Assembly (NCBI GenBank): GCA_963820525.1
Contig: CAWGAA010000001.1
Coordinates: forward strand, 3,040,001 to 3,104,000
Direction of reading: 5' to 3'
DNA: 64,000 nt
DNA from: an uncultured Spirochaetota bacterium
Lineage (GTDB): Bacteria > Spirochaetota > Spirochaetia > SZUA-6 > Fen-1364
Of this stretch, positions 18,862 to 60,077 are shown piece after piece. Both the position numbers and the translations under genes were made by a program. The notes below the pieces were generated by a model. It had not been told where the DNA came from. It was given only the letters and a program-made list of their open reading frames with translations, and made no database searches. Positions within the stretch are counted from its first letter, which is position 1. Each line of letters begins with the position of its first letter.

Positions 18862-18998
18862 AAGGCGGCCGAGCACAGGGAAGTGCGGAAGGCCGCCTCA
18901 AGCCAGGCAAGGCGGCCGAGCACAGGGAGGTGCGGGAGGCCGCCTCAAGCCAGGCAAGGCGGCCGAGCACAGGGAGGTGCGGGAGGCCGCCTCAAGCC
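18862..18998. repeat. 47-bp palindromic tandem repeat, ~3 copies
   Basis: AAGGCGGCCGAGCACAGGGARGTGCGGRAGGCCGCCTCAAGCC(AGGC) units starting at 18862, 18909, 18956. Confidence 0.9.
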
Positions 18999-18999
18999 T

Positions 19000-40493: not shown

Positions 40494-40616
40494 GTTTGTT
40501 TTTCATTGAGCAAAGGCCAATATTAGCTTAATACCATCCTATCACATTAGCGCAAGAGGGGGCGACAATGCGAGGCCGTTGCGCCATTCTATGCCAATCA
40601 TTCATCACTATCTAGA

Positions 40617-42540: not shown

Positions 42541-42615
42541 CTAGAGATTTTCTTCGACGCATGCCATCCGTCACAATTGCATTCTTGCTAATTAGCTCTG
42601 GCTAGCAAACTGACC

Positions 42616-43224: not shown

Positions 43225-44530
43225 CAGCTGGACCTTTCGAATTCTGATACTCCGAGTCTACATAACTTGAAAAGAGAGACTTAAGAAGTAGACGCATTAG
43301 TATTTGATAATTCGTGATAAACTCATCACCTTTCGATATTTGATCGATCTTTTGGTAATATATCCATCCGGCAAGAATAATATCCGCCATTCCCACAGGT
43401 TTGCCGTGCAATTCATTAGCCGGAATGATATCGTCAAGCTTCAGGTACAATTCGTCGATTTGATTAGGATTGAGATAGTACTTTGGGACTTGGCTCTGAG
43501 CATAGGATATAATATCGGGAAGAGATGCCTTAAAAAGCTTGATCTCCTCTGCAATATCAGTCAGAGCTTTTTGATCCTCATTATCAGAAAGGTACTGCTC
43601 GATGTCCTGCAGATATCTTTTATAGTACTTTGAGCATTCGGACTTAGAGGTAGCTACGGGGGCCATCCTTCCGTCAATCTTTAAAATCTCTTCATATAGT
43701 ACTCTTATACGATACTTGATTGGCGGATAATAATTAGTAAATCTGCTGGGTAATTCTATTTTGCCTTCAAATATGGATATAAAATCTAAAGCAAATAGCA
43801 TCGAAGGGCCAAAGATAAGATATCCACAAATGTCTGAAAGAATCTCACGATACATACCTTCAAGTATCTTCATGCCTTCTATGGTCTTTTCATATGGACG
43901 GAATAGATCAGCGGGAAACTTCTTTCGGTAGTAGGTGCTCAGATGAACGTTCTGATCTAAAATCAGTTTCTTTGCTTCAGGTGTTTCTTTCCATCTATTA
44001 TGGTAGAAATGACCCAATTCATGACCGATCACCGAATAGAGAAGAACATTGGTCTTCTCGAGATAAGGAAACGAAAAGACATGAATTTTCTGAGTGGAAA
44101 ATAGGCTGCTAATCTCTTGTGCTCGAGTCGGGAATATGGTAAGTAGCACATTGCTTAAGGGTCTGATAAGATCGTCTGTCATAACGGAATAGTTAAAATG
44201 CCATTGCGGCCTGAATAAGAGTAGATAGTCGGTTCCAAATTGCTCCTTAAGCATGCGATCAAGATATGGAATAACACTCCATGGAATATTTGCAGTTGAT
44301 GCCCGTTCTATATAGCGAACACTAGGTATGAATCTGGTCGAAATGAATATGAACAAAACCTTGTATGTTGATTCCTCAATCTCACCAAAGTGATCAACAA
44401 AATACTGGATGAACTTCTTGTAGCTGTCTATTGCAAGCACACAGGATTGGTTATAAAAATCAACGGTCTTGATTTCATCGAGATAGTTTCTAGCGCTAAT
44501 GAGCTTTCTATATAGCTTATTCTCAATCAT
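43208..44530 (-). CDS. Putative zincin metallopeptidase (HExxH), 440 aa
   Basis: IGHELGH, downstream REILSD, GP and YPPIKYRI; stop overlaps dcd start. Confidence 0.65.
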   Translation of the reverse strand: MIENKLYRKLISARNYLDEIKTVDFYNQSCVLAIDSYKKFIQYFVDHFGEIEESTYKVLFIFISTRFIPSVRYIERASTANIPWSVIPYLDRMLKEQFGTDYLLLFRPQWHFNYSVMTDDLIRPLSNVLLTIFPTRAQEISSLFSTQKIHVFSFPYLEKTNVLLYSVIGHELGHFYHNRWKETPEAKKLILDQNVHLSTYYRKKFPADLFRPYEKTIEGMKILEGMYREILSDICGYLIFGPSMLFALDFISIFEGKIELPSRFTNYYPPIKYRIRVLYEEILKIDGRMAPVATSKSECSKYYKRYLQDIEQYLSDNEDQKALTDIAEEIKLFKASLPDIISYAQSQVPKYYLNPNQIDELYLKLDDIIPANELHGKPVGMADIILAGWIYYQKIDQISKGDEFITNYQILMRLLLKSLFSSYVDSEYQNSKGPADEHLV

Positions 44531-44547
44531 TTGTTGCGCGTGATTCT

Positions 44548-45004
44548 TTACGCATACTGAAGGGAAGATTGGCTATGCGAAAGTACGTTATAGTTTTCTG
44601 AGTAGATTTTGCTGATCTTCTCAAAGAAATCTTGGAGGTCTGTCGAGGCCTGCCCCTTGTAAAATTTGCCTAGGATTGAGATCAAAATCAGCGAGTTGCT
44701 CTCTAATCTGCGTAAAGTAGTTTTTGAGGGAATTGAGCTTTTCTCTGTTTAGCGGAGTTGTCAGGCTTTCCGTAATCTCAATGACGTCTTTGAGATTTGG
44801 GACGAATTGAAAAACACCCGTAATATCAGATTGATATATATCGACGCCAAGTGTGTCCAGTGATCTAATTAGCTGATCTAAGAATGCTAAACCTTCTTTT
44901 AAGTAGGCTTTAGAGGTTGGAGATAGTGGCGTTTTTGAAGTTATAAGGGTGTGTCGAATGTTATCAAAAATAACCTGAAGTCGAAATTCTTCAAGATTTT
45001 CCAT
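44548..45004 (-). CDS. Hypothetical helical protein (~151 aa), apparent +1 frameshift near 44668
   Basis: GGAGG RBS and ATG 45004; alternative frame continues KFYKGQASTDLQDFFEKISK to TAA at 44548, 17 nt before the next ATG. Confidence 0.6.
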
Positions 45005-45072
45005 GATCTGCCCCTCCCCTAATATATGTCCATTTATACCACTTCGGAGCACTCACTGCAAATACTTTTTTC

Positions 45073-45115
45073 GCATAACATTGTATTAAACTGCATAGGA
45101 CTCTGGCGCAATGGC
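45073..45115 (-). other. Remnant 3' half of an attC (R' GTTATGC) marking start of the last cassette
   Basis: Minus strand GCAGTTTAATACAAT-GTTATGC, no matching R''. Confidence 0.45.
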
Positions 45116-45249
45116 CTATAGCGTCCTGCAAATATGTGACGCGGCCCTGAGGCCAACAAGGCCGAAGGGCCGTGTGGCGGAGCGGCGCGCTGCAGCGCCG
45201 CGGAACCCAAGGCGCCTACTGGCGCCGATGCACATATTTGCTGTTATGT
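45116..45249 (-). other. attC site with degenerate R' core (GCTATAG)
   Basis: R'' ACATAAC contains the gene's TAA; GCAAATATGTG/CACATATTTGC arms; homologous to the other attCs. Confidence 0.8.
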
Positions 45250-46149
45250 GGAGCCCTGCGGTTGCGTGCGCCTTGATCGTATCTTTGTAACTCTATCTAA
45301 TTCTTTTGTGTATTCGGGCCAACTTGTATTGAAAGGTTTACTCTCATCCTTATTTGAAATGAAAGGATAGTGCAACTGACCCATTGTGGAGTTGATGTAC
45401 TCTTCAAGGTACTCCAGCAGTGTTACCTCACTCTGCGGAGTCGTGCCAGCCAACTCCATTTCTAGTTCGTTCAGTTTGTTATGCAGGTCGATCCAGATGA
45501 CTGGGTATTCCTTGTTTCCCAAGACGCCTTTCAAAACGACTTTGTTCTGACAAAAAAGTCGAATGTCATTTCTTCGAAGGGTCAGGAAGTTGTCCCTCAT
45601 CAAAAGTATGGCAAGCTCGACGGATATCACGAATTTACCAATTTCCGCAAATTTGGAGATTCTAAATCCGATGTCAATGGATTTTCCGATGAACTCTGTT
45701 CTTTCACTCTCTACTCTGGAGTTGTCAACAGGAGTATTCCCGGTCCACGCAGTTCCCTTTATCTTGAGCTCACTGGTCTCATTGAATCTCGCGATTGCCT
45801 TCCTAAATACATTGATGTACCACAGTATCAACGAATATTGGCTATCTTCAGCAGGCTTCACTTCTCGGAACGATTCAATGATGCTTATGAAAAACAGCAG
45901 CTCGTCACCATTGATTTTCCATTGAGAAGGAACGGGCAGCGTGAGTTCTCTCTTTTTGCCTGCATTGACCCTTATAGCAGCTCGACTGCATTCTTCTTTC
46001 AGTATTTGAGAAAATTCGCTGTAGAAGTCGCTAAGTGATACAGTCCAATCGCGATCCTGGTATTTTCGCTGAGTCGAATCAATTACGTCAACGCTCAGGA
46101 AGAGGAAAAAATCCTCTTTATTGACTTCTACAGGTTCATGTGGGCGCAT
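45244..46149 (-). CDS. Divergent class III nucleotide cyclase-like protein (cassette gene)
   Basis: FLSVDVIDST, WKINGDE, FIGKSIDIGFRISKFA...VIS, LKG; AGGAGG RBS. Confidence 0.6.
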   Translation of the reverse strand: MRPHEPVEVNKEDFFLFLSVDVIDSTQRKYQDRDWTVSLSDFYSEFSQILKEECSRAAIRVNAGKKRELTLPVPSQWKINGDELLFFISIIESFREVKPAEDSQYSLILWYINVFRKAIARFNETSELKIKGTAWTGNTPVDNSRVESERTEFIGKSIDIGFRISKFAEIGKFVISVELAILLMRDNFLTLRRNDIRLFCQNKVVLKGVLGNKEYPVIWIDLHNKLNELEMELAGTTPQSEVTLLEYLEEYINSTMGQLHYPFISNKDESKPFNTSWPEYTKELDRVTKIRSRRTQPQGST

Positions 46150-46177
46150 CCATAGACCTCCTAGATCGCAGGGTTCC

Positions 46178-46307
46178 ACATAACGTCCCGCAAGTATACG
46201 ACTTGGCCCGAGGCCAACATGGCCGAGGGCCATGTGGTGGAGCGGCGCGCTGCAGCGCCGCGGAGCCCAAGCCGCCCGCCAGGGCGGCGAAGCACATATT
46301 TGCTGTT
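46178..46307 (-). other. attC site; its original R'' box is displaced to 48025-48031 by IS1182
   Basis: ACATAAC...CATATTTGCTGTT, near-identical internal sequence to attC 45116-45249. Confidence 0.85.
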
Positions 46308-48024
46308 GATTCTGTAGGAAAAGCCACGCGCCTACTTTACGCTATTTGATATCCAGCGCACAATAGCTTCATGGCGCGGTATAAGGATCATAATCAGGAT
46401 CAAGGCGAGTTTATTGTCGTCCAGTTCAGCGAGCAACTGCTTATGGATACCTTCGAATACACGCTCAATCACCTGATCAACGAGAAAATAGATTTATCAG
46501 CGCTCGATTCAAAGTATAAGAACGATCTTACCGGTGCTCCTGCATATGATCCTCGGGTTTTACTGAAAATCATTCTTTTCGCCTACTCCAGAGGCATATT
46601 TTCATCACGACGGATCATGGAGCTTTGCGAGACGAATATCATAGCCAAAGCGCTTTCGGCAAACTCCATCCCGCATTTCACGGTCATAGCGGATTTCATC
46701 TCATCGATGAAGGATGAAATCGCCGGCATATTTCTGAAAATCCTCATGGTGTGCCAGGAAATGGAGCTCATCGGCGGAAAGCTGTTTGCGATTGACGGAT
46801 GCAAGCTGCCGTCCAACGCGTCCAAAGAATCGAGCGGCACCTTCAGGGATCTCAAAAGGAGAAAAGAAAAACTTGAAAGAACGGTAAAACTGCTCATTCA
46901 AAAGCATACTGTAACCGACAGAGCTGAAACCGCATCAGGATCCGAAGTTTCGCCAAAGAAGAAAGCCATTGATAGGATCGACTCAAAGATCAAGCACATC
47001 GAGGACTTCCTTAAAACAGAAACGCCGAAACAGGGCAACCGTGGCAAGGAAATACAGTCGAATATCACGGATAACGATAGCGCAAAGATCAAGACTTCTC
47101 ACGGAATGATCCAGGGGTATAACGGGATCGCCCTCGCGGATGAACAAAACCAGGTCATTATAGCCACCGAAGCCTATGGGAAAGGGCAAGAACATGGGAC
47201 ATTCAAGCCCGTTCTTGAAATGGCGGAAGAGAATCTGAAAGCCATCACCGACAAGGAAGAACCTCTTTCAGGAAAGACCGTACTTGCGGACACGAATTAC
47301 TTCTGTGAAGAAAACCTAAAAACAGCCGCGGATAAGAAAATCGAGGCGATCATCCCGGACTACAACTTTCGAAAACGAGACGAGCGCTTCGTGGACAGGA
47401 AAGATCATTCGGGTATCGAGTATAAGTTTGGATTTCAAAATTTCACATATGATGAGAAAACAAACACGTATACATGTCCCAACGGGAAAACACTGAAACA
47501 TAGAGGACATGCAATACTTCATGGATCTTCGGGGCATCGTTATCAATCCAAAGCGTCCGACTTTAAGGGGTGTCGGTTTACAAATAAATGCTTTCATCGC
47601 AAAAAGAATAGCAGCGGCAAGCGGACACTCTTTATAGATGACAAGGATAATTCCACCAATTATTCGGCACAAATGATCCAGAAGATCGACCGGCCGGAGG
47701 TCAGGGATTTATATTCAAGACGGATGGCAATCATCGAACCAGTGTTTGCGAATATCACATTCCATAAGAGACTGAACAGATTCACTCTGAGAACGAAAGC
47801 GAAAGTGAATATTCAATGGCTGTTATATTGCATGGTTCATAATATAGGAAAGATTTCAAAGGCGATGTCTGGAGCGAATGCATGATGGAAAAGAAAATGC
47901 ACACCGATTGTCCGATGATCTATATCGATAGAGTAGTTTTCGCTTTCTGATCATTCATAAATCGTTTTTGAATCGAGTTTGAAGGAGAACTGTTGTCTTT
48001 TGGGCTATATTTTCCTACAGACTC
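46308..48024 (+). mobile_element. IS1182 family insertion sequence (1717 bp)
   Basis: TIRs GATTCTGTAGGAAAA / TTTTCCTACAGACTC (14/15); GTT on both flanks. Confidence 0.9.
46371..47885 (+). CDS. IS1182 family transposase
   Basis: GAPAYDPRVLLKIILFAY..G..SSRRI, IDGCKL, TDNDS, LADTNY, CPNG, IEPVFANI, HNIGK. Confidence 0.93.
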   Translation: MARYKDHNQDQGEFIVVQFSEQLLMDTFEYTLNHLINEKIDLSALDSKYKNDLTGAPAYDPRVLLKIILFAYSRGIFSSRRIMELCETNIIAKALSANSIPHFTVIADFISSMKDEIAGIFLKILMVCQEMELIGGKLFAIDGCKLPSNASKESSGTFRDLKRRKEKLERTVKLLIQKHTVTDRAETASGSEVSPKKKAIDRIDSKIKHIEDFLKTETPKQGNRGKEIQSNITDNDSAKIKTSHGMIQGYNGIALADEQNQVIIATEAYGKGQEHGTFKPVLEMAEENLKAITDKEEPLSGKTVLADTNYFCEENLKTAADKKIEAIIPDYNFRKRDERFVDRKDHSGIEYKFGFQNFTYDEKTNTYTCPNGKTLKHRGHAILHGSSGHRYQSKASDFKGCRFTNKCFHRKKNSSGKRTLFIDDKDNSTNYSAQMIQKIDRPEVRDLYSRRMAIIEPVFANITFHKRLNRFTLRTKAKVNIQWLLYCMVHNIGKISKAMSGANA

Positions 48025-48049
48025 GTTAGGTGAAGGGCAGAACAGCAAA

Positions 48050-48547
48050 TTACCGATATGATTTTGCCATTTTATCCCTTTTCTGCAAAAATTCAGGTTC
48101 CAAATGTTTGGCTAATATTTTAACTATTAAAGATATAGCCTTATCTATATCTTTATAAATATCTGACTCCCAAATGCGAATGACATTCCAGCCGCTATGT
48201 ATTAATGATTTTGTGTTCTTAATATCTCTATCAATATTATTTTCGATCTTAGCAATCCAATATTTACTATTATAGCCCTTTATCAATTTCTTTCTTCTAA
48301 GATGCCAGTCTTTTCCATGCCAAAAATCTCCATCTACAAATACTACACATTTTTCTTTAGTAAATACTATATCAGGTATACCTGGCATAGTCCTCACATT
48401 TTTCCTATAGCGTAAACCGATTTTCCATAAATAATGACGAAGTAGTACTTCTGGCTTAGTATCCTTTTTCTTACTCGCTCCGCGTGCTTTAGCTGAGGCA
48501 TTTTCTGACTTTGGATATAATCCTTTAAATGATGCATTTTTATGCAT
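48050..48547 (-). CDS. vsr: Very short patch repair endonuclease
   Basis: DTKPE, PGIPDIVF, FVDGDFWHG, YWIAKIENNIDRD, GWNVIRIWE. Confidence 0.93.
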   Translation of the reverse strand: MHKNASFKGLYPKSENASAKARGASKKKDTKPEVLLRHYLWKIGLRYRKNVRTMPGIPDIVFTKEKCVVFVDGDFWHGKDWHLRRKKLIKGYNSKYWIAKIENNIDRDIKNTKSLIHSGWNVIRIWESDIYKDIDKAISLIVKILAKHLEPEFLQKRDKMAKSYR

Positions 48548-48550
48548 GAT

Positions 48551-49540
48551 TTATCCAAATATCGCCTTATATAATCCCCCTAATTCTACAATCTCCATTT
48601 TTGATAATGGTAGAATATCAGTTAATTCTGACTTAAATCTAACATCGCTGACTTCTGCAGGAATGTTAGACGTAATTTGGGGAATTTCGATTGCATCATA
48701 TATACTAATAGTATTTAGAGCATTTGAGGAATCAAATCTTATGCGTATAGCATCTCTCCAATCTCTGCCTAAGCTCATCGTGATTATTTGTGAAATTCTT
48801 TCTTTTAATCTTTCTGATATATCCATACGCGAGGTTATTTTTTCCCAAAGATCTATGATGGAAAGGCCATTTGCTTTTTCATCTATCAGGAAAGAAACAA
48901 TCAGTATTCTATTGTTTTTCTTAGGAATTAATTGATCAAGATTGAAATTATGAATACGTATAGGACCTTTAGTCGATTTAACTTCTAATTGTTGTTCTCC
49001 ATTGACAAAGTCAAATAATTCATTCGGATCAGCGTGCCAAGCAGTTGCAGCTAAGTTAATATCGTGCGCATTAGCAATGAGAAATAGTTCACACCAAATG
49101 CCCTCAATAGAGCTTAATGGAGGAGCCTCCATTGATCTAAACAACTCAATTAGATTAGATATTATTAATAAAATGTCTATGTCTTTAGATTCCAAAGGCA
49201 TCAGTGAAATAATCCCAGATAACGCCCGCAAAAAGTATTCTCTTAATATCTGATCTGCTTTTGAGCATTTAATCATCGTGAGCCTTTCTGAAGCGATTGT
49301 TCCATCATTATTAATAATTTGGCACATACAACTGGGACGAAATGAAAAATATTTGAATTCTCTTGGAGGAATAGAAAGCTCGTTTGAATGGCTTTTAGTT
49401 GAGAATAAGAGAGCGGGATTTCCATAAGAATCTTTTGCAATATGAATATTGGGATGCCCAGGCAATACAAGTGCTGAATAGAATTCTCCAGAATCTTTAA
49501 TTTCTTTTAGATTAAGAAATAGTGAAAACAAGTCAATCAT
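48551..49540 (-). CDS. PD-(D/E)XK motif protein (DUF4420-like)
   Basis: GIWCEL, W...FDF...LEVKST; follows Z1 gene with overlap. Confidence 0.75.
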   Translation of the reverse strand: MIDLFSLFLNLKEIKDSGEFYSALVLPGHPNIHIAKDSYGNPALLFSTKSHSNELSIPPREFKYFSFRPSCMCQIINNDGTIASERLTMIKCSKADQILREYFLRALSGIISLMPLESKDIDILLIISNLIELFRSMEAPPLSSIEGIWCELFLIANAHDINLAATAWHADPNELFDFVNGEQQLEVKSTKGPIRIHNFNLDQLIPKKNNRILIVSFLIDEKANGLSIIDLWEKITSRMDISERLKERISQIITMSLGRDWRDAIRIRFDSSNALNTISIYDAIEIPQITSNIPAEVSDVRFKSELTDILPLSKMEIVELGGLYKAIFG

Positions 49541-51692
49541 TATTGTTCTCAGTATGTATAAGAATATCATCTTGCTGAGTAAGCCTTATAGCTACTGCGG
49601 GTACATTTTCATAATAATGATTATCATCTTCGATACGAAAAAAATGTATCTGAATCGTTGGCAAATCTTTCTGGAAAAATGCGCGATCGCCAGGATAAGA
49701 ATCAGCTCCAGAGCTTGAACGGCCTTGAAAAAGCTGCGGGATTATTCCTTTTGAAAGACGCCGCGTTCGCTTTAGGCCATAATGCATGAAATAGACTAAA
49801 CATTTCAAATTATTATCGAGATCAAGCATTGATTTTAGATTGCAATTAACATAGCAAAGGCCTATTGCATCTTCTTCATCGAGATATGATAGAGGTGCCA
49901 GTACATTCTCGAAAACTTCATTTAGAAAAGTGAAAGCCAATTTGTGTTGTGGAAACCTAGCATTTTCTTTGAATTGCATGTTTTCAAGAAGCTTTATAAG
50001 CTTAGCGTTGTGAAGACCTTCGCTGGGCGAATTATGCGGAGCTCGCGGTGCAAACCAATTATCCCCCAAATGTGGCCTTAGATAAGGTGTTGATAATATA
50101 TTATATCTTGTGGGTGCTAAGCTATGATCAAGATAAAAAAGTCTTCGCCATTCTTTTAAAGGGCGACCCCGATGAGCTTCTAACCGATTTCGCATATCTT
50201 GTTCATGCCTAACATAAGCTATATATGCGTACTTTACATCTGGGTGTAAATAAACTCTGCAAAAACCAAAATGTCCGCTATGATATCCAAAAAATCGCGC
50301 ACGTTGTTGTATCGTATCTGCTGTCCAACCACCTGGACCTCTAGGCATATAAGTTACAGTTAAACCTTTTACAGTATATCCACGACCTAGTTTCTCGCCA
50401 CCTACAAGAATATGTGAATATGAGTTTTGCCATTGAACTTCACGCCCTTCTATAGAATTAACTAAGGTTACAGTAGTTTGATTTATAGCTACAGGTAATT
50501 TGCCCTCAATTTGATTGAATGGCGGCAATGAAGAACAGGTACGACTTAAATCATCATAAGCGGTTCTAAAATCAGCCATTAATTCAATACGATCTGGTTC
50601 ATTCATAGCTTGTAATATTCTATGCCAGTTGTGCTTTATGGCTTCTATCCAATCATAATAATGACGATGTATAGCTATTTTTTTTGAAGCATGAACTAGC
50701 ATTGATCGATGCTCTTCAGAGTGAGAAATACGTCCAGCTGCTACGCCAATAAAATAAACTTGTAGCGCATGTAATAAAGACTCTGGAGGCTCTTCTGGCA
50801 TATGCTCATCATCAAAAAGATATGCTTGTGCAATTGTTTCAACATATATGCTGTTTTCAGCAAAAAACAGATCCCCACCTATGTATCCTTCACCAGGTGA
50901 AACAAGCTCTGCAAAATCTGCTGATAATGAATCTATTCTAGTAATTAGCAATGGAGCTTGCGGAGTTGCAGTGTATTGCAAGAAGGTATGAGATGGGAGG
51001 GCTTTTCTAAGCCCATCAATACTGACATAAGTTGCACTAGCATTTGGCTCATTCGGGCGTGTGTTCAAACTGGCCTGATCCGCTTCATCATCGAATATAA
51101 TAGAAGGTATTCCACCCAGATCGATTGAGCTTAGCAACTGTGTCAAATTATTTAAATGCCTGTAATTCTTCATTACAGTAATGAAAAGTGTTCGTCGGTC
51201 TTCATCAACATATTGATTACTTCGCCATTCTTCAATTAATGCTACGATAGCAGGTAATTCATTATCTTTTCGTGGGTTTTTTAACATATGCCACGTCCAA
51301 TCAGGCGATGCTGAACGCAAATGAGATTCCATTCTTTCACTATTTTGTGTTACGAGATTAGTTGTTATTCCAGCGATTAGAATAATAATTCTATAGCCAT
51401 TATCTTTTGCTAAAGCAGAAATAGCAGTCATCGATGCAGTTTTGCCACTTTGAACATACCCACATACAAGTCCAATCCCGGGATTCTCAGATGAAGTCGG
51501 TGGATTGCATTTAGATAGAATACGATGTGCCTCATCAATTAAGCGGTTTGCATCTTCCCCTGAGGGTAGAATCCCTTGAGTTATGAAATAATTCCTAAGT
51601 GAGTTTGTGACATTCCCAATTATTGGAACCCAATTACCATTCGAATCATGAATATTTATGATTTTAATAATTTCATTAGAGTTAATAGCCAT
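49533..51692 (-). CDS. Z1 domain-containing SF2 helicase-like protein
   Basis: GYVQSGKT, DDEAD, YTATP, SMLVH, GLTVTY, DTIQQRARFFGY. Confidence 0.88.
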   Translation of the reverse strand: MAINSNEIIKIINIHDSNGNWVPIIGNVTNSLRNYFITQGILPSGEDANRLIDEAHRILSKCNPPTSSENPGIGLVCGYVQSGKTASMTAISALAKDNGYRIIILIAGITTNLVTQNSERMESHLRSASPDWTWHMLKNPRKDNELPAIVALIEEWRSNQYVDEDRRTLFITVMKNYRHLNNLTQLLSSIDLGGIPSIIFDDEADQASLNTRPNEPNASATYVSIDGLRKALPSHTFLQYTATPQAPLLITRIDSLSADFAELVSPGEGYIGGDLFFAENSIYVETIAQAYLFDDEHMPEEPPESLLHALQVYFIGVAAGRISHSEEHRSMLVHASKKIAIHRHYYDWIEAIKHNWHRILQAMNEPDRIELMADFRTAYDDLSRTCSSLPPFNQIEGKLPVAINQTTVTLVNSIEGREVQWQNSYSHILVGGEKLGRGYTVKGLTVTYMPRGPGGWTADTIQQRARFFGYHSGHFGFCRVYLHPDVKYAYIAYVRHEQDMRNRLEAHRGRPLKEWRRLFYLDHSLAPTRYNILSTPYLRPHLGDNWFAPRAPHNSPSEGLHNAKLIKLLENMQFKENARFPQHKLAFTFLNEVFENVLAPLSYLDEEDAIGLCYVNCNLKSMLDLDNNLKCLVYFMHYGLKRTRRLSKGIIPQLFQGRSSSGADSYPGDRAFFQKDLPTIQIHFFRIEDDNHYYENVPAVAIRLTQQDDILIHTENNND

Positions 51693-53221
51693 TATTTTCC
51701 GCTTTTTTTAATAGGCCCAGATAAAGACCTTAGAATCTGATTTAAGTTTCTACGTATCGTTCCTGCTTGCCTAACGCCTGCTTCTCTTGCTGTAATTTCT
51801 GCGATTGCCAGGCCTGCAGCTAGCCGAGTAAATGGTATTATTTCATCTCCATCTGGCGAAACGAAACGGTCCATGAAGGGATGTGCTAGATTCATACGAA
51901 TATGAACTTCAATTTCTGATTTCTGCTTGTTATTTTGAGATAGCTCATACCATTCTTCATGCGATATATCATCAATAAGCTCAATTGTTATAGACCAATG
52001 CTTAAGTGCGTGATTTACTTCAATTTTAACAGATGTACTCTTAGCTTTTTCGTCTTTAGATTTTTCAAGCCTTGTAGCTAGTGGCTCATCTTTAGGCTTA
52101 TTATTTAATTGTTCTTCTATTATCGGAGATAGGTGCTGTGCAATTATATGAGTTGCATCTTCGGGTGCTTCGCTAATAACTTCCTGTATCATGTTGCTAT
52201 GAGCCCGATAATTTGCTGCTTGATCAAGTAATGGAATTGGTTTTGTATTTAACTCCGATTTTAGCCATTTTAATATATCATCTTCCCAATCTTCCCACTG
52301 AATACCATCTTTAGTATGACTAACAGAAAATCCCTGAACTTCAAGCTCTCCAATAAGTCGCTGATAAACAAATTTATTAGCTTTTCCAAAAATATATTCT
52401 GGACGGTAAGCTTCGCCACAACTGCCCTGTATTAATCTCCTTCGCCTAAATAATGCAAAGCCAGCATTTGTAACACTTCCACGTGCAAGAATTCCTGCCC
52501 ATCCTTTAACGCTATGATCATTATTAAAAACCATATTAAAATTCTTTTGCCAAATTATTGGTTTATTGTCAGGAGTTGAATGATACGGTGCTTCAAGGAA
52601 AACAGGTGGTTCATAAATCAATGGAGTCCCATCTACTTTTATCTCTAATAAATTATCTCTGATAAACAAGCGATAAATGCTACCAAGATGATCCTTTATT
52701 TTGTCTAGCGTCCGTCCTTTTGGTTTAACCAGCAAATTACTAAGAGTTATTACAGTAAAGTGCTTCTGTTCATTAACTCGATTCTCTGTTGGCTGCAATT
52801 TTTCGATATTATTCTTAACTATCATTGGTATGTCAAATACTATTGACCTCTCTACATTTTCACCAATCGCTTTTGTTCTTACTATCCAAGTTCTCGCGAA
52901 CCAGCTAGCGGCTGCTTTCATGCCAAGACCAAATTCAGACAATCCAGAAGTATCTGGCGGGATTGCAGCTGGAAGAAAGGCTCTTGCATAATCACTTATG
53001 GCTATACCAGCTGCATTATCGCGAATCTCAATATAATCATCATGCAATTCTATCTCAACTAATAGCTTATAATACTTACCATCCAATTTTCTTAGGGCAG
53101 TAATATTTGAACAGCCACTTTGTAGGGAATTATCGACAAATTCTGCTAGCGCAAACCACGGCTTGTAATTCAGTCTTGCAAATGAAGCATACATAGCTAC
53201 TTCAGGTCTGATTATTATCAA
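51692..53221 (-). CDS. GHKL (MORC/MutL-like) ATPase
   Basis: AEFVDNS, IRDNAAGI, GLSEFGLGMKAA. Confidence 0.88.
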   Translation of the reverse strand: MIIIRPEVAMYASFARLNYKPWFALAEFVDNSLQSGCSNITALRKLDGKYYKLLVEIELHDDYIEIRDNAAGIAISDYARAFLPAAIPPDTSGLSEFGLGMKAAASWFARTWIVRTKAIGENVERSIVFDIPMIVKNNIEKLQPTENRVNEQKHFTVITLSNLLVKPKGRTLDKIKDHLGSIYRLFIRDNLLEIKVDGTPLIYEPPVFLEAPYHSTPDNKPIIWQKNFNMVFNNDHSVKGWAGILARGSVTNAGFALFRRRRLIQGSCGEAYRPEYIFGKANKFVYQRLIGELEVQGFSVSHTKDGIQWEDWEDDILKWLKSELNTKPIPLLDQAANYRAHSNMIQEVISEAPEDATHIIAQHLSPIIEEQLNNKPKDEPLATRLEKSKDEKAKSTSVKIEVNHALKHWSITIELIDDISHEEWYELSQNNKQKSEIEVHIRMNLAHPFMDRFVSPDGDEIIPFTRLAAGLAIAEITAREAGVRQAGTIRRNLNQILRSLSGPIKKSGK

Positions 53222-54501
53222 ATCATATTCTCCTTAGCATGGCTTTTAGAAGGATATAAATTTTGCACAGTACTCCTTGGGCCGCGTCCGACACCAGGAT
53301 GATCAGAGTGATTTCCTTTAAGATAAAGGTATTTCTTTATGACCGGATAGCAACGAGAAGGAGGTGGACAATCCTCTCTATGAGGCGGCATTAATCGTAA
53401 AGTTAGTGGGATGCAATTTTCATTTAATAATTGCCTTCTTATTTCGAGGCCAAATAATTCTCCAATTAAGCAAGGCACTGCATTTCCTACTTGACGATGT
53501 GCTGAAGACCTATTTCCATAAATTTCATATCCATCAGGAAAAGTTTGTAAACGTGAGATTTCTTTGATACTTAGCAAGCGATTTCGCCAATGAAATGGAC
53601 CAGAAGCTGGTCCAGGACTAGCTTGTATGGTCCAAGACGGATACCTTTTTGATAATTTGAGTAGAAATGACCAGTACTTTGTCCTCCAGCCAAAAAGGGG
53701 GGTCCCATTACCACGATGAGTGTGCCATAGATAATTTTTTCCCTCAGGGATGCTTTTAATCAAATCTTTCCATTTTCCCCTAATTTGAAGGTCAGCAGAC
53801 CATTCATTTGTATCAAGATCACCAATTGCATCCCAGGAATTCCTATAAGGTTCAAGGCCGTCAGCATATCCACATATGGGAGAAGGCATATCGAGCATTT
53901 TTCCATTAATATCAGCGACAATAAAAATCCGTTTCCGTATTTGTGGAACACCATAATCTGCAGAGTTTATATAAAAGTCTTGTAGCTTATATTCAGTTCC
54001 TTTCTTTCTATTTATTCTTTCAATACCATCTTTAATTAATTCCAATCCAGATCTCTGCCTTCCATAAGCATTCCAAGATATCCCTTTTACGTTCTCGAGT
54101 AATATTACTCTTGGTAACGCTACCTCAACCACATTAAGAAAAGCTTGAAGTGTTTTTGTTCTCGGGTCACGTAAGCCAGCAGAGGTGCCATTAAACCAAT
54201 AGGTCGACTTTGAGAAAGGCTGACAAGGTGGTCCGCAAGAAAGTAGTGCGGTTTCTCCAGGTTGCAGGCCAACTTGTGATAATAGCTCAGAAGGATGAAT
54301 TCTAAAAATATCACCTGGATTGGTTAGAGTCCAAGAAGGATTATTCTTTGTTAATGTTTTTCTTGAGTCATCGTCAGCTTCGATACAGCCCTTAATACAA
54401 AATCCGGCATATTCTAGACCTAAATCCAAACCACCTGCTCCAGTGAATAATGATAAAACTAAATGTTCTGGTTTTTTTTTCTGCTTTAATCGTTTATTCA
54501 T
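53218..54501 (-). CDS. dcm: DNA (cytosine-5) methyltransferase
   Basis: LFTGAGG, GPPCQPFS, LENV, YGVPQIRKR, RLQTFPD, QVGNAV. Confidence 0.95.
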   Translation of the reverse strand: MNKRLKQKKKPEHLVLSLFTGAGGLDLGLEYAGFCIKGCIEADDDSRKTLTKNNPSWTLTNPGDIFRIHPSELLSQVGLQPGETALLSCGPPCQPFSKSTYWFNGTSAGLRDPRTKTLQAFLNVVEVALPRVILLENVKGISWNAYGRQRSGLELIKDGIERINRKKGTEYKLQDFYINSADYGVPQIRKRIFIVADINGKMLDMPSPICGYADGLEPYRNSWDAIGDLDTNEWSADLQIRGKWKDLIKSIPEGKNYLWHTHRGNGTPLFGWRTKYWSFLLKLSKRYPSWTIQASPGPASGPFHWRNRLLSIKEISRLQTFPDGYEIYGNRSSAHRQVGNAVPCLIGELFGLEIRRQLLNENCIPLTLRLMPPHREDCPPPSRCYPVIKKYLYLKGNHSDHPGVGRGPRSTVQNLYPSKSHAKENMI

Positions 54502-54896
54502 AATAAAAATGAATGGCTTCAATGGGTTTTTCAACGACCGCGGCCATGTACATATTGGATAAGACTTCAGCTATTGATATAGATTTAACGCTTGAATATT
54601 CCTTTAATGTCACCATATTGTCTTCAATAATCACCTTGATCACGGCATCGGTTTCAGTTGATTTGCGTTTACAGTTACCAGGATCGTGATCTATTCCCTC
54701 CTCTAGTTATGTAATATATCAGATCTTGACTATCATTGTACATTGTAAATTTTGGTCAATAGAAATCGGGACAATCACAAATCTCTACTGAGTTTATTAC
54801 TTAGCCTTGCAAGGATGTTTTTCATTATTGGGTAGAGCAAGAAACTGTCGTTGGTGACTGTTACATATGATACACACAAGTAGTGTTCTGCCTTTC

Positions 54897-55007
54897 ACCT
54901 AACGTTTCGAGCGTACACGACGTGGCCCGAGGCTAACAAGGCCGAGGGCCATGTGGCGGAGCCCGAGCCGCCCGCCATGGCGGCGAAGCGTGTACGCTCC
55001 GTTAGCT
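54897..55007 (-). other. attC site (111 bp)
   Basis: R'' AGCTAAC and R' GTTAGGT on minus strand; GAGCGTACACG/CGTGTACGCTC arms; 8 nt after cassette gene stop. Confidence 0.9.
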
Positions 55008-55015
55008 GAAGTGGA

Positions 55016-55536
55016 CTACGATCTTTTAAATCTTGTGGCATAAACTCTGCGTGGAAAATCGCCTTCTGCATACTCGGTTTTACTCGCATCTTTTACAATA
55101 TCTTCATTTGCGTACGCCTCTATTACTTCACCTATAAAAAGATTTTTATCTCCTGTTTCTATTTCTTGTTTAACTTTGCATTCAATATGAGCTACACACT
55201 CGGCAATAATAGGAGCTCTTACTTTTCGCGCTGGTTGTTGAGTTAATCCCGTTTCTCTAAATTTATCAAATTGATATCCTGAGTGCAAACCGCAATAATA
55301 TATTTTTGCTTTTAGCTGAGCGGGAGGAATATTTACAATAAATTCTTTATTACTTTTGATTAACTCATATGAAAAGGATTTGTTCCCTATGGCACAGGCT
55401 ATAAGTGGGGTCCCTTTGAGACAGGCATACAAAAGCTAACTGCGATGATATTTGATTTTATTTTTATCTCCCCGCAGGTTATTAAGAAATGTCTCATCGG
55501 CCACATAAATTCTAGATATTCGACATCAATATTCAT
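55016..55536 (-). CDS. Flavin reductase (DIM6/NTAB) family protein, frameshifted near 55407-55410
   Basis: EFIVNIP, DKF, APIIAECVAHIEC, GDKNLFIGEV; N-terminus MNIDVEY...MPVSK in another frame. Confidence 0.8.
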
Positions 55537-55562
55537 TTTATCTAATCTCCCTTGTCCATTTC

Positions 55563-55757
55563 AGCTAACGTAAAGGGTTTACGACATGCCCCGTCCCGAA
55601 GGGCTGGCACAGGGGTTGCCCCGCAAAACATAGAAAAGAGTGTACCACACATCTTAGAGGACCGTAAGAAGATTTGATCTGCAAGCCCTGTGCCAGAGGG
55701 GCATGTGGCGAAGCCCGGAGCGACCGGAGGGAGCGGAGCGTAAACCCTATGTTGAAC
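55563..55757 (-). other. Long attC site (195 bp)
   Basis: R'' GTTCAAC, R' GTTAGCT; nested arms AGGGTTTACG/CGTAAACCCT, ACATGCCCC/GGGGCATGT, CTGGCACAGGG/CCCTGTGCCAG. Confidence 0.8.
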
Positions 55758-55787
55758 GAAGTCGCTCCGCCCGCGCTATGGGTTTTA

Positions 55788-56990
55788 TTACGCGCTGTTC
55801 CAATAACTTTCAGCGGTATTTTCCGGCGGGAGCTCAATAATCTGAATATTCGCGCTCTTGCAGCGGGGACATCTTTTTTCGATAGTCTCAGGCGCTTCCA
55901 AGAAAAAATCATACGATCGCTGTTGAGATTCTAGATCGATGCATAACAAACGACGGATGTATTTCAGATTCTCATTTTTGTGCCCGTTGCTCAAGAGGCC
56001 GTAAAATCGTATACGCTTGAATCCTTCCGGCAGCACATGCAGGAGAAATCTTCTCATGAACTCGGAGGCGCCAAGTGTCATTACCTTTTTCCGGTTTCTA
56101 TTCCTGTAGTCCTTCCATATAAAGCTCACGTTTCCGCCGGTGAAATTCAATATCCGTTTGTTGCTGATCGCTACCCGATGCGTATAGTGCCCTATATATT
56201 TCAGTACGCGTAACGGATTGGAAAACGGCTTTTTGGCGTAGACGATCCATTTTTTCGCATAACATTCATCCAACACCTTTGCAAACCCGGCTGTCTCTGC
56301 TGTCTTGCGTAACTTACCAAAGAAACTCAACTCTTTTGCTGCATATGCCTGTTTCAAATAATGCAGGTATTTACCTCTGAACAATCGATTGAGAATGTGT
56401 ATCGAGATAAAGAAGTTGTTCCTGCTTTCAATCCATGCGGATTTATCCCGGCTCAATCCCCCTCCGGTAACAATGCAGTGCAGATGTGGATGGTCAAGTA
56501 GGTTTTGGCTCCAGGTGTGGAGAATGGCGATAAATCCGATCTTCGCGCCGAGATTCTTCGGGTTTCCCGCGGCTTCTTGAAGAGTCTCGTTTGCGGCGTG
56601 AAAGAGAATGTCGTAGAGCACTCTTTTATTCTGGAGAATAAGGGAATTCAATACCGCCGGGACGGTGAAGACGATATGGAAATATTTTATGGGCAGAAGC
56701 TCTTGTGTCCGCTCGTAAACCCATTGCGCCTGCTTGCTCGCCTGGCATTTGGGGCAATGCCGGTTCCTGCATGAATTATAGGATATCTGTTCATACCCGC
56801 ATTCATGGCAAACAAGTTTATGGCCGCCCAATTTCGGACCGCGGCAGTTTATGATTGCGTTTACGACTTTCCAATGATCATAACTGATGCCTTTCAGTAA
56901 CTGGGTGCTTTGTCTGAAAACATCGGCGACTTCGAATTTGGGTCTTGGAAAAACCGTTGCCGCTTCAATATAGCCCATGCTGTATAACAA
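55788..56990 (-). CDS. IS91 family rolling-circle (HUH, Y2) transposase
   Basis: SCRNRHCPKCQ Zn domain, HIVFTVP, HTW...HPHLHC, YIGHY, FLLHVLP, RFYGLL; start uncertain. Confidence 0.93.
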   Translation of the reverse strand: MLYSMGYIEAATVFPRPKFEVADVFRQSTQLLKGISYDHWKVVNAIINCRGPKLGGHKLVCHECGYEQISYNSCRNRHCPKCQASKQAQWVYERTQELLPIKYFHIVFTVPAVLNSLILQNKRVLYDILFHAANETLQEAAGNPKNLGAKIGFIAILHTWSQNLLDHPHLHCIVTGGGLSRDKSAWIESRNNFFISIHILNRLFRGKYLHYLKQAYAAKELSFFGKLRKTAETAGFAKVLDECYAKKWIVYAKKPFSNPLRVLKYIGHYTHRVAISNKRILNFTGGNVSFIWKDYRNRNRKKVMTLGASEFMRRFLLHVLPEGFKRIRFYGLLSNGHKNENLKYIRRLLCIDLESQQRSYDFFLEAPETIEKRCPRCKSANIQIIELPPENTAESYWNSA

Positions 56991-57066
56991 GCGGGAAACA
57001 TCTGTCTTGCTTTCATGGCGGCGAATGAAGACTAAGGCTTGATGAAAGCCATCGCGGAGCGATTTT

Positions 57067-57132
57067 GTTCAACTCGTTGAGTGTGAATTTCACCTTTCCA
57101 TTTCATTATAATCCTTCTTCCCCAATCATCAA
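57067..57132 (-). promoter_or_regulatory. Candidate attI core and Pc-like promoter
   Basis: First cassette begins at GTTGAAC (57073) with no attC upstream; minus-strand TTGATG-N16-TATAAT at 57132-57105 points into the array. Confidence 0.55.
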
Positions 57133-57174
57133 GCACATCTCGGTCGTATAGATAGGCATGGGAGTGCGCATTTC

Positions 57175-57267
57175 ATGAACTATTATCTCGAGGCGTTCCT
57201 TCGGGAATCGAGGAATCGAGGGTATGTCACGGAGAAAACCGCCGCTAAAATCAAGAGCCCGCTTTGA
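57175..57267 (+). pseudogene. Internally deleted tyrosine recombinase (putative intI relic)
   Basis: MNYYLEAFLRESRNRGY fused to VTEKTAAKIKSPL; GGGAG upstream; divergent from cassettes. Confidence 0.55.
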
Positions 57268-57476
57268 GAATATCGTGAAATTCACGATACCAGCGCCATG
57301 CAGTCATTACGGGGAATTTCACCTTTGAGTATTTGAAGGACTTCAAAAATCTCGCCCGATGCGATTACGATCATCTTGGAGGACGGACGCGAGGGTGCGC
57401 GGCGCAGGCTTCCGGCAGACGCGGTTCAAGGAATAGACGGCCTCTTGTGACTTCAATGAATGAAGCCCTCCGCGAG

Positions 57477-58040
57477 TCAAACAATCCCGGCGCTGTCTCC
57501 AGGACCGGTGAGGAACAGTCGCCTTACCTCCTCGGATTCGATCATGCTGCTAAGCCAGTTTTTCATATCGGGGGCCCGCCAGAAAGGCTGGTTCTGAAAA
57601 ACCGAATTGAATGTGTGGAAGTGCGTATTCAAGAAGACCTTCACCCTTCCAGCCACCATTTCCTTGATTTGATGGTCAAAGGGCAGGTTTTTGTATATCA
57701 ATTTCTCCGGATTACGGTAGCCAAGCCGTATGAGCTCGGTCACTTTCAAGCGGCACCGGCATCGGGCTTTCCTGGTGACCAGACCGCAATTCTCGCTCAT
57801 GAACTTCTTCAGCTTGTTTCTCCGCCCCTAATGGAGACGGGACGTTGAAAATAACCCCGAGCACAATCACGATCCTCTGTTTTCGGTTAAGACAGATCAG
57901 CGTCGCCAATACGCAGCTCGTCATCGTGTCGATTACGGTTTCCCGGATGGACGGGGAATCCTCTGGCTCACGATCACCGACAATATCCATTCTGGCGTAA
58001 TAATTGTCGAAATCATATGCGAATGTGGGCCAAATCCTTT
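57477..58040 (-). pseudogene. Degraded ECF-type RNA polymerase sigma factor gene
   Basis: CVLATLICL..KQRIVIVLGVIF then frameshift to FMSENCGLV...CRC; no intact N-terminus. Confidence 0.5.
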
Positions 58041-58067
58041 CGTTTCGATTATCACGCCGGAGCGGGC

Positions 58068-58430
58068 TTATTTCGCTTGTTCTGCCGGGGCCAGGGCTTT
58101 CTTGACCGTGCTGATGAACAGATTGCGCGCCCATGTGGCTCCGCTGACCGAGTCTACCCTGTCCAGGCTTTGGGTTTCCACAGGCATCAGGGGGTACTTC
58201 TGCAGCCATTTCCAATTTTCCCTGCACTGTTGGACGTACATGTCATTTCCTGCGTAGTTTTTTTCATAGTATTGATCGAATATCTGGTTCTTAAGGACGT
58301 CCATGATCTTGAAATCGAGAGCGCTAATCCTGCCGTTTTTGATCGCGATCTTGACCTGTCCCCAGAATGGCTCGCTCGTGTAGCCGGCCTGGGATTTCCC
58401 TTCATACACCCCGTCCGCGTATGTGAGACA
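58068..58430 (-). CDS. FMN-binding domain protein, possibly 5'-truncated
   Basis: YADGVYEG, IKNGRI, VDSVSGAT; in-frame stop upstream, no signal peptide; 5' boundary approximate. Confidence 0.65.
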   Translation of the reverse strand, partial: CLTYADGVYEGKSQAGYTSEPFWGQVKIAIKNGRISALDFKIMDVLKNQIFDQYYEKNYAGNDMYVQQCRENWKWLQKYPLMPVETQSLDRVDSVSGATWARNLFISTVKKALAPAEQAK

Positions 58431-58539
58431 TTCCCCCTTTTCTGCGGCAACCGCCGTTTTCCCTTTACCATTGATACACGGCTTTTCTCAGGGTGTGACA
58501 GAGGGAGAAAACATTTTTATCCGTCTGAGCCAGGGGCCG

Positions 58540-58745: not shown

Positions 58746-60077
58746 TTACAATATGTTGGACGCCAGCTCGGCCAGCCTCGAGCGCTCTCCCTTCTCCAGG
58801 GTCACATGGGCGTAGAGCGACTCTCCCTTCATCTTGTCGATCAGGATGGTGAGGCCGTTGGAGCGCGAGTCCAGGTAGGGCGTGTCGATCTGGTAGGGGT
58901 CTCCCGTGAAGACGACCTTGGTGCCTTCTCCGGCGCGGGTGATGATGGTCTTCACCTCGTGCGGCGTGAGGTTCTGCGCCTCGTCGATGATGAAGAAAAT
59001 CTTCGACAGGTGCCTGCCGCGGATGTAGGCGAGGGGCGTGATGACCAGCTTCCCGTTGTCCACCAGGTCGTGGATCCTCTTGAAATCCGAGGACGCCTCG
59101 TCGAACTGGTTCTGGATCACGGAGAGGTTGTCGAAGAGCGGCTGCATGAAGGGGTCGAGCTTGCTCTTGATGTCCCCGGGAAGGAAGCCGATGTCGCGGT
59201 TGGACAGGGGAACGATGGGCCGGGCAAGGTAGATCTGCTTGTAGCTCGATCTCTTCTCCAGGGCCGCGGCGAGCGCCATCAGGGTCTTGCCGGTTCCCGC
59301 CTTTCCCGCCAGGGTCACCAGGGAGATGGAATCGTTGAACAGCGCGTCCAGGGAAAAAGTCTGCTCGGCGTTTCGCGGCTCGATGCCGTACGCCCTCTTC
59401 TTCACGACGTGGCGGAAGGACTTGGTCTCGGAATTGTAGGAGGCCAGGATGCTCTTGTTCTGGCCCCGGATGATGAAGTACTCGTTGGGAAGCGGATCGC
59501 GCTCCAGGGTGACCTTTTCCCGCGGGGCGGATCCCTGCTCGAAAATTTCGTCGACAAGGCTTCCGTCCACGTTCTCCACGATGTCCTTGCCCTTGTACAG
59601 CTCGTCGATGTTGCGGACCTTGCCCGTCTCGTAGTCTTCCGCCCGGATGCCAAGACCCTTTGCCTTCATCCTGATGTTGAGGTCCTTGGAGACGAGGATC
59701 ACGCGGTCCTTGCCGTATTCCTTGGTAAGATTGTAGGCGACGGAGATGATGCGGTGGTCCGGCTTGTCTTCCCAGAAGATCTCGCTCAGGTACGGGTCGC
59801 GCTTGATGTCGGTATTCACCACAACCATTCCGCCGGAATCCAGCCGGATCCCCTCATTGAGCAGCTTGTCTCCCCTCATCGCGTCGAGCTTGCGCGAGAA
59901 TTCGCGGGCGTTGAAGTTGATGATCTCGTTGCCTCTTTTGAACTTGTCGATCTCCTCCAGGACGGTGATCGGGATGACGACGTTGTGCTCCTGGAAGGAG
60001 TAGATGCTGTTGTGATCGTAGAGGATGACGTTGGTATCCAGGACAAAGATCTTGTTCTGACCGTTGAAAACTGCCAT
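58746..60077 (-). CDS. PIN-PhoH family protein
   Basis: FVLDTNV PIN domain, GKAGTGKT, GFLPGD, YIRGR, IIDEAQN. Confidence 0.93.
   Translation of the reverse strand: MAVFNGQNKIFVLDTNVILYDHNSIYSFQEHNVVIPITVLEEIDKFKRGNEIINFNAREFSRKLDAMRGDKLLNEGIRLDSGGMVVVNTDIKRDPYLSEIFWEDKPDHRIISVAYNLTKEYGKDRVILVSKDLNIRMKAKGLGIRAEDYETGKVRNIDELYKGKDIVENVDGSLVDEIFEQGSAPREKVTLERDPLPNEYFIIRGQNKSILASYNSETKSFRHVVKKRAYGIEPRNAEQTFSLDALFNDSISLVTLAGKAGTGKTLMALAAALEKRSSYKQIYLARPIVPLSNRDIGFLPGDIKSKLDPFMQPLFDNLSVIQNQFDEASSDFKRIHDLVDNGKLVITPLAYIRGRHLSKIFFIIDEAQNLTPHEVKTIITRAGEGTKVVFTGDPYQIDTPYLDSRSNGLTILIDKMKGESLYAHVTLEKGERSRLAELASNIL

Follow-up and report, generated by a model that had tools for sequence, protein, structure and literature searches.

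The stretch of DNA analyzed here (the window, 64,000 nucleotides; positions 3,040,001–3,104,000 of contig 1) belongs to the genome of an uncultured Spirochaetota bacterium, 5.05 Mb in four contigs. It holds a five-gene unit resembling a restriction-modification (RM) system, which is bounded by two complementary arms, set among attC-like recombination sites of the kind known from integrons, and interrupted near its 3' end by an insertion sequence (IS). Read along the minus strand, the unit and its upstream border comprise the following features:

54903–55022, minus strand: attC of the preceding cassette, intact; its R' box gives the upstream crossover point of the five-gene unit
54884–54903, minus strand: 5' arm (R' side), complementary to 48025–48044
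54502–54883, minus strand: AT-rich leader of about 400 nt between the 5' arm and dcm
53218–54501, minus strand: C5 cytosine DNA methyltransferase (Dcm); Pfam DNA_methylase 132 bits, TIGR00675 (NCBIfam dcm) 118 bits against a cut-off of 101
51692–53221, minus strand: GHKL (MORC/paraMORC-like) ATPase; Pfam HATPase_c_3 47 bits
49533–51692, minus strand: DEAD-Z1 superfamily 2 (SF2) helicase-like motor; Pfam Z1 126 bits, PADLOC 'Type II helicase domain protein' 198 bits
48551–49570, minus strand: DUF4420 PD-(D/E)XK nuclease-fold protein; Pfam DUF4420 85.5 bits
48050–48547, minus strand: Vsr-family very-short-patch repair endonuclease; Pfam Vsr 85 bits, TIGR00632 127 bits against a cut-off of 98
48025–48044, minus strand: 3' arm (R'' side of the unit's own attC), 5 nt past the vsr stop
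46308–48024, plus strand: IS1182-family (DDE) element of 1,717 nt, transposase 46371–47885; NF033551 278 bits against a cut-off of 270
46184–46307, minus strand: remainder of the unit's attC, consisting of the L'' box, the GC-rich variable part of the host family, the L' box, a 5-nt spacer and one final base, after which the next crossover falls

All five component families score above the curated cut-offs of Pfam and NCBIfam, and the genes form one co-directional operon, with overlaps of 4, 1 and 38 nt between the first four open reading frames (ORFs) and a gap of 3 nt before the fifth. The scores and ORF ends agree with an earlier note on this DNA, which had listed dcm, GHKL ATPase, Z1, PD-(D/E)XK and vsr genes with overlapping or abutting ends; the PADLOC check it had proposed yielded the Z1 match given above. 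The dcm ORF extends over 53218–54534 on the minus strand, with the true ATG probably at 54501. Walker A (SGKT) and DEAD are present in the Z1 translation, and PCQ, ENV, QxRxR and GNAVP, which we take to be catalytic motifs of Dcm, are visible in that of the methyltransferase; as judged by the translations, the catalytic motifs of the five-gene cargo look intact. A sequence search against solved structures gave no match for the Z1 or the GHKL protein. The G+C content of the cargo is 33–40% per bin, compared with mostly ~55–67% in the window outside the low-G+C island (~42.5–58 kb, 33–50%), which points to a foreign origin of the cargo.

The two arms are complementary at 19 of 20 positions, as the earlier note had claimed for boundaries at 48025 and 54903, and an inverted-repeat search returned them as 48024–48044 and 54884–54904 (21 nt, 95%, 20/21). 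This pair is the most complementary of the 25 longest among 54 pairs in 47900–55100; one other pair of 15 nt reaches 93%, and the rest of those 25 are at or below 88%. When joined as in an excised circle, the arms form a 21-bp closing stem with a folding energy of –56.0 kcal/mol, against –29.3 ± 3.1 for shuffled sequences. The outer R boxes of attC sites follow the core consensus RYYYAAC / GTTRRRY, and at the site of the five-gene unit the cores ACCTAAC / GTTATGT are visible together with 11-nt L boxes. The unit starts directly after the G of a GTTAGGT core, and we infer an upstream crossover between 54903 and 54902. As a recombination unit it runs from 54902 to 46184 on the minus strand (8,719 nt as present, 6,999 nt without the IS) in the order 5' arm, leader, five genes, 3' arm (48044–48025), IS and attC remainder (46307–46184). 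The extent of 48025–54903 given earlier therefore holds for the cargo and both arms, and falls short on the 3' side, where the unit's own attC lies past the inserted IS.

The attC remainder belongs to a family of GC-rich elements of ~140–165 nt in this host, three of which are found here at 45099–45266, 46161–46327 and 54881–55024. The same family forms a 63-kb array on contig 3 (828–891 kb) and a short array on contig 1 at 2.07–2.10 Mb. At each site, the outer box on one side ends in AAC and that on the other starts with GTT; the remaining parts are pairing inner boxes of 11 nt, spacers of 5 and 1 nt, and a conserved GC-rich middle. In an alignment of 12 sites, 95.5% of the helix cells are paired, as opposed to 30–47% when the partner is slid by 1–3 columns, and compensatory changes occur in eight of the 11 L-box pairs. 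The outer arms measure ~16–20 nt and vary in sequence from cassette to cassette; in 12 of the 27 adjacent site pairs in the genome's arrays, the start of a cassette can pair with the outer arm of the attC belonging to that cassette, which is what a crossover inside the core would be expected to produce. The remaining 15 pairs include partial matches and IS-interrupted sites, the five-gene unit among them, although its own arms follow the rule at 19 of 20 positions. The next largest unit for which this arm rule was verified in the genome measures 4,224 nt, contains two ORFs and lies in a sister array.

No recombination site was found within the operon, as the earlier note had also claimed. A covariance model built from the 12 aligned sites and run with filters off over 42000–58500 gave three strong matches of 122–143 bits, to the three elements named above, and one weaker match of 29 bits at 55573–55759; within 48045–54880 its best match scored 7.4 bits (E 0.84). 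A genome-wide nhmmer search with the host attC family likewise placed no site inside the five-gene unit. A family-independent scan for hairpins combining R and L boxes returned one chance-level candidate in the unit, inside the Z1 coding sequence (49910–49986; score 20, against 22 for the real site), and seven similar non-attC matches elsewhere in the window. Since the gene ends overlap or are separated by 3 nt, there is no room for an intergenic attC.

The IS1182-family element parts the 3' (R'') arm from the inner boxes of the unit's attC. All three copies of this element in the genome, the other two being on contig 3 (~860865–862613 and 873596–875343), occupy an identical position, the GTT of an attC outer box, with one and the same orientation and with the GTT duplicated on both sides; the insertion is therefore a simple, site-specific one. 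The element looks like an attC-targeting IS; this habit is known for IS110-type elements, which belong to another family. Because the IS splits the attC and displaces its arm, the unit is probably immobile at present.

The site structure is nearly palindromic, and the strand is therefore not fixed by sequence alone. We read the array on the minus strand based on ORF orientation, the contig 3 array, a divergent recombinase remnant and fold stability. Within the window, the cassette ORFs are without exception encoded on the minus strand. In the contig 3 array, 45 of the 61 ORFs with a length of 90 aa or more are directed away from the recombinase, and its sites have the sense opposite to the plus strand of the window, that is, the same orientation relative to the recombinase as in the window. 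For 10 of the 12 sites the plus strand of the window gives the more stable fold, which is weak evidence as to which strand recombines. The plus-strand reading, in which an attC at 54893–55012 would be owned by five inverted genes, was dropped on the grounds of gene orientation, the contig 3 array and the recombinase remnant. The unit measures ~7.0 kb under either site orientation.

Two recombinase features, one of them a pseudogene, accompany these arrays:

57175–57270, plus strand: recombinase remnant, a 31-codon fusion with an internal deletion, divergent from the cassettes
contig 3, 825826–826623, minus strand: 265-aa IntI-like tyrosine recombinase at the left end of the 63-kb array

The remnant corresponds to the first ~17 and last ~13 residues of the 265-aa protein. 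The latter scores 191 bits on TIGR02249 (cut-off 265), has its best match to a XerA/'integron integrase' model (202 bits, cut-off 220), and is 33–39% identical to the two integron integrases (IntIs) of the genome. Those two true IntI genes (449 and 411 bits) are located on contig 1 at 0.68 and 1.95 Mb, more than 1 Mb from the array, and a genome-wide search found no sites of the host attC family near them.

Based on these observations, we consider it likely that a single gene cassette, part of an integron-like array on the minus strand, carries the five genes as its cargo. With its attC split by an IS and the local recombinase deleted, the unit most likely represents a formerly mobile cassette that is now frozen. 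What sets it apart is size; the cargo itself adds nothing new. The 6,999 nt without the IS amount to about three times the accepted maximum, in line with the earlier description of the cassette as unusually large. According to the literature consulted, the largest cassettes are ~2 kb; median cassette coding sequences of 575 and 362 bp are given, and synthetic cassettes tested only to ~3 kb, in Loot et al. 2017 (PMC5371416). Within the searchable part of the literature, we found no larger or multi-gene cassettes. According to Darracq et al. (bioRxiv 10.1101/2024.07.02.601686), defense systems in RefSeq integron cassettes (783) 'never exceed 2 components', long loci are absent, and integron defense systems are smaller than those elsewhere.

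The closest parallels are the bacteriophage-resistance integron cassettes (BRiCs), which have been described both from mobile integrons (Kieffer et al.) and from sedentary chromosomal ones (Darracq et al.). BRiCs share with the present unit a defense-type cargo, attC-type bounds, co-oriented cassettes and attC-less homologues outside integrons. The unit in the window differs in comprising five genes in 7.0 kb, in being full-length relative to its homologues, and in belonging to an array without IntI.

Several observations weigh against the cassette interpretation. First, the window contains no match to a tyrosine recombinase and no integron integrase and no identified attI adjoin the array; the 265-aa protein lacks ~40 residues exactly at the IntI-specific segment of both true IntIs, and any enzyme recombining these sites is putative. 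Second, the site is not textbook: the L boxes of the unit pair imperfectly (two mismatches and one G–T in 11 pairs, by eye), a 4-nt bulge stands between the R and L boxes on the 5' arm, and the one-base bulge on the 3' arm occurs in only five of the 12 aligned sites, leaving mixed strand cues. In canonical attC sites bulges are placed differently. Third, promoter-like sites in the cassette number 21, against 26.0 ± 5.2 expected, and hexamers are not above chance; restriction activity, methylation motif and expression of the five genes are putative. Fourth, the closest homologues (57–63% identity) are not in arrays, and flanking inverted repeats at the level of the window occur at only one of 109 homologous loci, itself outside any array. 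Because the repeat at that locus (L017) stands in a genome that yielded neither this attC family nor an integron integrase, the arms might belong to the module and not to attC. Finally, the cassette was seen once, and its five genes appear only in sequencing runs of one study. Eleven runs from seven studies hold some words of the region, and the contigs of four were compared: two runs, both belonging to the same study, contain the five genes at low depth, and two wetland runs cover only attC, IS1182 and IS91 parts, one of them showing an IS1182 end fused to an arm of the family type. The four runs yielded neither a circle junction (54902/46184) nor an empty-site junction, and, since no listed run piece spans the whole stretch, the junctions are not independently confirmed. 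Joints such as 54962 to 46239 were rejected as circle junctions; they fall within the attC part common to the family, with 56 letters on the shorter side. Overall, the case is weakened by the single occurrence, the decayed array and the non-canonical recombinase.

The earlier note had named homologues never bounded by such cores as a finding that would speak against its reading. This is nearly what the one locus in 109 amounts to, and the cassette reading nevertheless survives it, since defense cassettes with attC-less homologues elsewhere have been reported (Kieffer et al., bioRxiv 10.1101/2024.07.02.601719).

Among the alternatives, the one that fares best, though we regard it as improbable, is that the five-gene module is a mobile unit of its own with terminal inverted repeats of ~20–24 nt, which landed at a GTT/AAC core between two attC sites so that its arms mimic R boxes. 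The closest homologue with the same gene order, L017, speaks for it: in this metagenome-assembled genome of a Spirochaetota bacterium, the operon (Z1 62% identical) lies between housekeeping genes and is flanked by a perfect 24-nt inverted repeat (L017:4571–4594 and L017:11107–11130), which starts with TTAGG like the arms in the window and is found nowhere else in that genome; the genome has no attC-model match and no integron integrase above the cut-off. The arms in the window are also ~45% G+C by eye, like the cargo and unlike the GC-rich attC middle, and RM operons of this type are described in Iyer 2008 (PMC2292703) as behaving like mobile elements that insert in hotspots. Removal of such a module would, however, leave two abutting attC sites, a state unseen among the 27 site pairs. 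The arms moreover stand in the exact register to the L boxes (5 nt, 1 nt) that other cassettes show, and proper cores are created. A family search of the proteins found no transposase or recombinase gene inside the unit, and a mobile unit of this kind has to be set against the 108 of 109 homologous loci at which no comparable repeats occur.

Less probable still is that two unrelated attC clusters flank an acquired restriction island after an IS-mediated rearrangement, and that the island was never a cassette. Three IS or IS-like elements (IS1182-family, IS91-family and IS4-like) do lie in or around the array, the local recombinase is deleted, and the two sites are 8.7 kb apart. Against this, the IS1182 junctions and GTT duplication are the same as at the other two copies, so that no rearrangement is needed, and arms matching at 19 of 20 positions across 6.8 kb are not expected by chance: 108 of the 109 homologous loci have a repeat score of at most 15, compared with 18 in the window. 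Least probable is the notion that the stretch comprises two or more cassettes parted by a divergent recombination site missed by the models, which were built from a single attC family in a genome whose canonical integrons use other sites without a match to that family's model, given that all five-gene junctions overlap or are 3 nt apart, that the same five genes are syntenic across many phyla outside any array, and that the sole hairpin candidate is at chance level within conserved Z1 coding sequence.

Returning to the cassette interpretation, the term 'integron cassette' used earlier holds as regards the attC-like sites and the cassette-type bounds; it does not hold as regards the integrase, in place of which there is a remnant of a recombinase without the IntI-specific segment. 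The array is only partly an integron: it is integron-like, non-canonical and decayed. In IntegronFinder terms, the window would by analogy be a CALIN (a cluster of attC sites lacking an integron integrase) beside a recombinase pseudogene, provided that the attC model accepts these sites. CALINs are defined in Cury et al. 2016 (PMC4889954) as two or more attC sites that share a strand, lie under 4 kb apart and have no accompanying integron integrase. The array in the window shares with them several attC-like sites, the absence of any integron integrase nearby, the recombinase pseudogene alongside and IS elements in the array. The difference lies in spacing: the site pairs at ~45.1/46.2 kb and ~54.9/55.7 kb are each within 4 kb, whereas the gap of 8.7 kb between the pairs exceeds the 4-kb IntegronFinder default, and the array would consequently be split.

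To place the cargo, we analyzed the homologues of the Z1 protein and their neighbors. Relatives are abundant (E ≤ 1e-20 for 7,799 of the 8,000 candidates scored), the best identity being 63%. The same neighbor genes recur in 160 homologous loci from many phyla. Among the 92 loci with enough flank, all five genes are present in 33, four without Vsr in 42 and fewer in 17, so that the four core genes are found in 75; the order dcm–GHKL–Z1–DUF4420–vsr was seen in loci L017, L018, L049 and L073. Of 25 ORFs located downstream of DUF4420 in relatives, none was AIPR, and none of the five proteins in the window matched it. The Vsr-bearing, AIPR-less gene set, which the earlier note had taken for a variant architecture, is ordinary in this branch and was predicted in 2008 and 2022. 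As judged from sequence comparison, the cargo is an ordinary member of a widespread predicted RM family consisting of Dcm, GHKL, DEAD-Z1, DUF4420 and Vsr. A single-protein search of a collection of genome contigs gave no close relatives. In a sample of the phylum, five of 401 genomes (including that of the window) have a Z1 match at E ≤ 1e-50, the best being only 42% identical, and the sample hence offers no close copy for comparison. Comparison of the leader and tail with the 160 loci by blastn-short gave only two 15-nt chance matches. Next to one close homologue is the end of a gene which, judged by eye, resembles an island-type integrase.

Iyer et al. 2008 (PMC2292703) predicted that MORC/paraMORC GHKL proteins form RM systems with a superfamily II (SFII) helicase, a nuclease of the restriction-endonuclease (RE) fold, a cytosine methylase and Vsr, and Miller et al. 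2022 (PMC9523054) described a candidate system of Z1, PD-(D/E)XK and C5-methylase whose 'type I' goes with repair endonucleases. The operon in the window shows no essential difference from these Iyer 2008 and Miller 2022 type I operons, with the same five families in a tight operon; the copy in the window is of low G+C content, and none of the homologues found exceeds 63% identity to its Z1 protein. No bench test of the Dcm-linked GHKL/Z1/DUF4420 form is reported in the searchable literature.

The resemblance to Mza/MORC-Z1 systems noted earlier holds in part. The triad of GHKL, Z1 and PD-(D/E)XK is shared with Mza (mzaABCDE); the system in the window is without AIPR (MzaE) and MzaA and has Dcm and Vsr instead, and the scores on the Mza equivalogs lie far below the cut-offs (NCBIfam MzaC 103.6 against 1500 and MzaD 22.9 against 420; PADLOC MzaB 14 bits). 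The H subunit of CglI is the only biochemically studied Z1 motor that we found, and its DEAD-Z1 is described in PMC5861437 as an ATP-driven translocase on double-stranded DNA that licenses cleavage. CglI and NgoAVII (R2H2; PMC5861437 and PMC4267653) share with the present system a DEAD-Z1 motor paired with a C5 methyltransferase. They differ in that the CglI nuclease is a PLD-B3 R subunit, whereas the candidate nuclease in the window is DUF4420 and a GHKL ATPase is added; a Pfam search found no PLD or B3 domain among the five proteins.

By analogy with these systems, we infer a possible mechanism for the cargo. Dcm would mark the host DNA with 5-methylcytosine, and the Z1 motor, if it acts like the CglI H subunit, would translocate along unmarked DNA at the expense of ATP. 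The GHKL ATPase may serve as a clamp or loop former, the DUF4420 protein would cut the DNA, and Vsr would mend T:G mismatches arising from deamination of methylated cytosines.

The five-gene, 7-kb unit is a counter-example to the view, current in integron research and built into the standard detection tool through its 4-kb clustering threshold, that cassettes are small and that only streamlined one- or two-gene defense systems fit them. Past mobility of the unit would mean that complete defense systems of several proteins can be shuttled by capture arrays, and that surveys at default settings would undercount these. It is conceivable, if on balance unlikely, that spirochaetes carry a second integron-like capture system, with a short IntI-related recombinase lacking the IntI-specific domain, attC sites of ~150 nt, 20-bp arms and operon-sized cassettes. 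Cassettes such as the present five genes in 7 kb and the verified two-gene, 4.2-kb one of the sister array would be within its reach, and part of the 'small cassette' rule would then be explained by the 4-kb search threshold and by the predominance of Vibrio in the data. The cargo-like arms, together with the arm-only L017 locus, would in that case show how a free module gains an attC, making cassette genesis testable.

From right to left, the array consists of the recombinase remnant, an IS91 unit, a flavin-reductase-like cassette, the five-gene cassette, a one-ORF cassette and a degenerate terminal unit. The units other than the five-gene cassette contain the following features:

55571–57073, minus strand: first array unit, with an IS91-family transposase (55788–56990) and its own attC-like site
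55016–55432: flavin-reductase-like ORF of the preceding cassette
45122–46183, minus strand: next cassette, with a ~300-aa ORF without family match, its own arms (15 matching bases) and the attC at 45099–45266
42616–45121, minus strand: terminal array unit of three genes; upstream core mutated, GCT for GTT

The IS91 unit shares 98.3% identity with the unit that opens the contig 3 array (55566–57226 compared) and is present in six full-length copies in the genome. It starts with TTGAAC, its own site begins GTTCAA/C, and it obeys the cassette rule; the possibility that it is an IS inserted at a core was rejected on account of the fit of its ends to that rule. The terminal unit encodes a dCTP-deaminase-like protein (TIGR02274, 140 bits) and proteins of 440 and 143 aa, neither of which has a family or PADLOC match, and may be a further defense module. 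PADLOC matched none of five proteins from the neighboring cassettes. Beyond the terminal unit, the end of the array is interrupted by an IS4-like element (~40603–42549; DDE_Tnp_1 transposase 40795–42438) bearing terminal inverted repeats of ~20 nt; just past it, at 40566–40590, is a remnant resembling the arm of a cassette boundary.

Within the five-gene unit, terminator-like sites are not above chance. The leader contains a 40-codon ORF (54494–54616, minus strand) that overlaps the dcm start by ATGA; it has no Pfam match and may encode a small regulator. Just beyond the low-G+C island, a gene for a PIN–PhoH fusion protein (PIN_4 and PhoH) lies at 58746–60077 on the minus strand. In the host part of the window, a 47-nt GC-rich unit is repeated in three tandem copies at 18862–19002, which are 87–100% identical.

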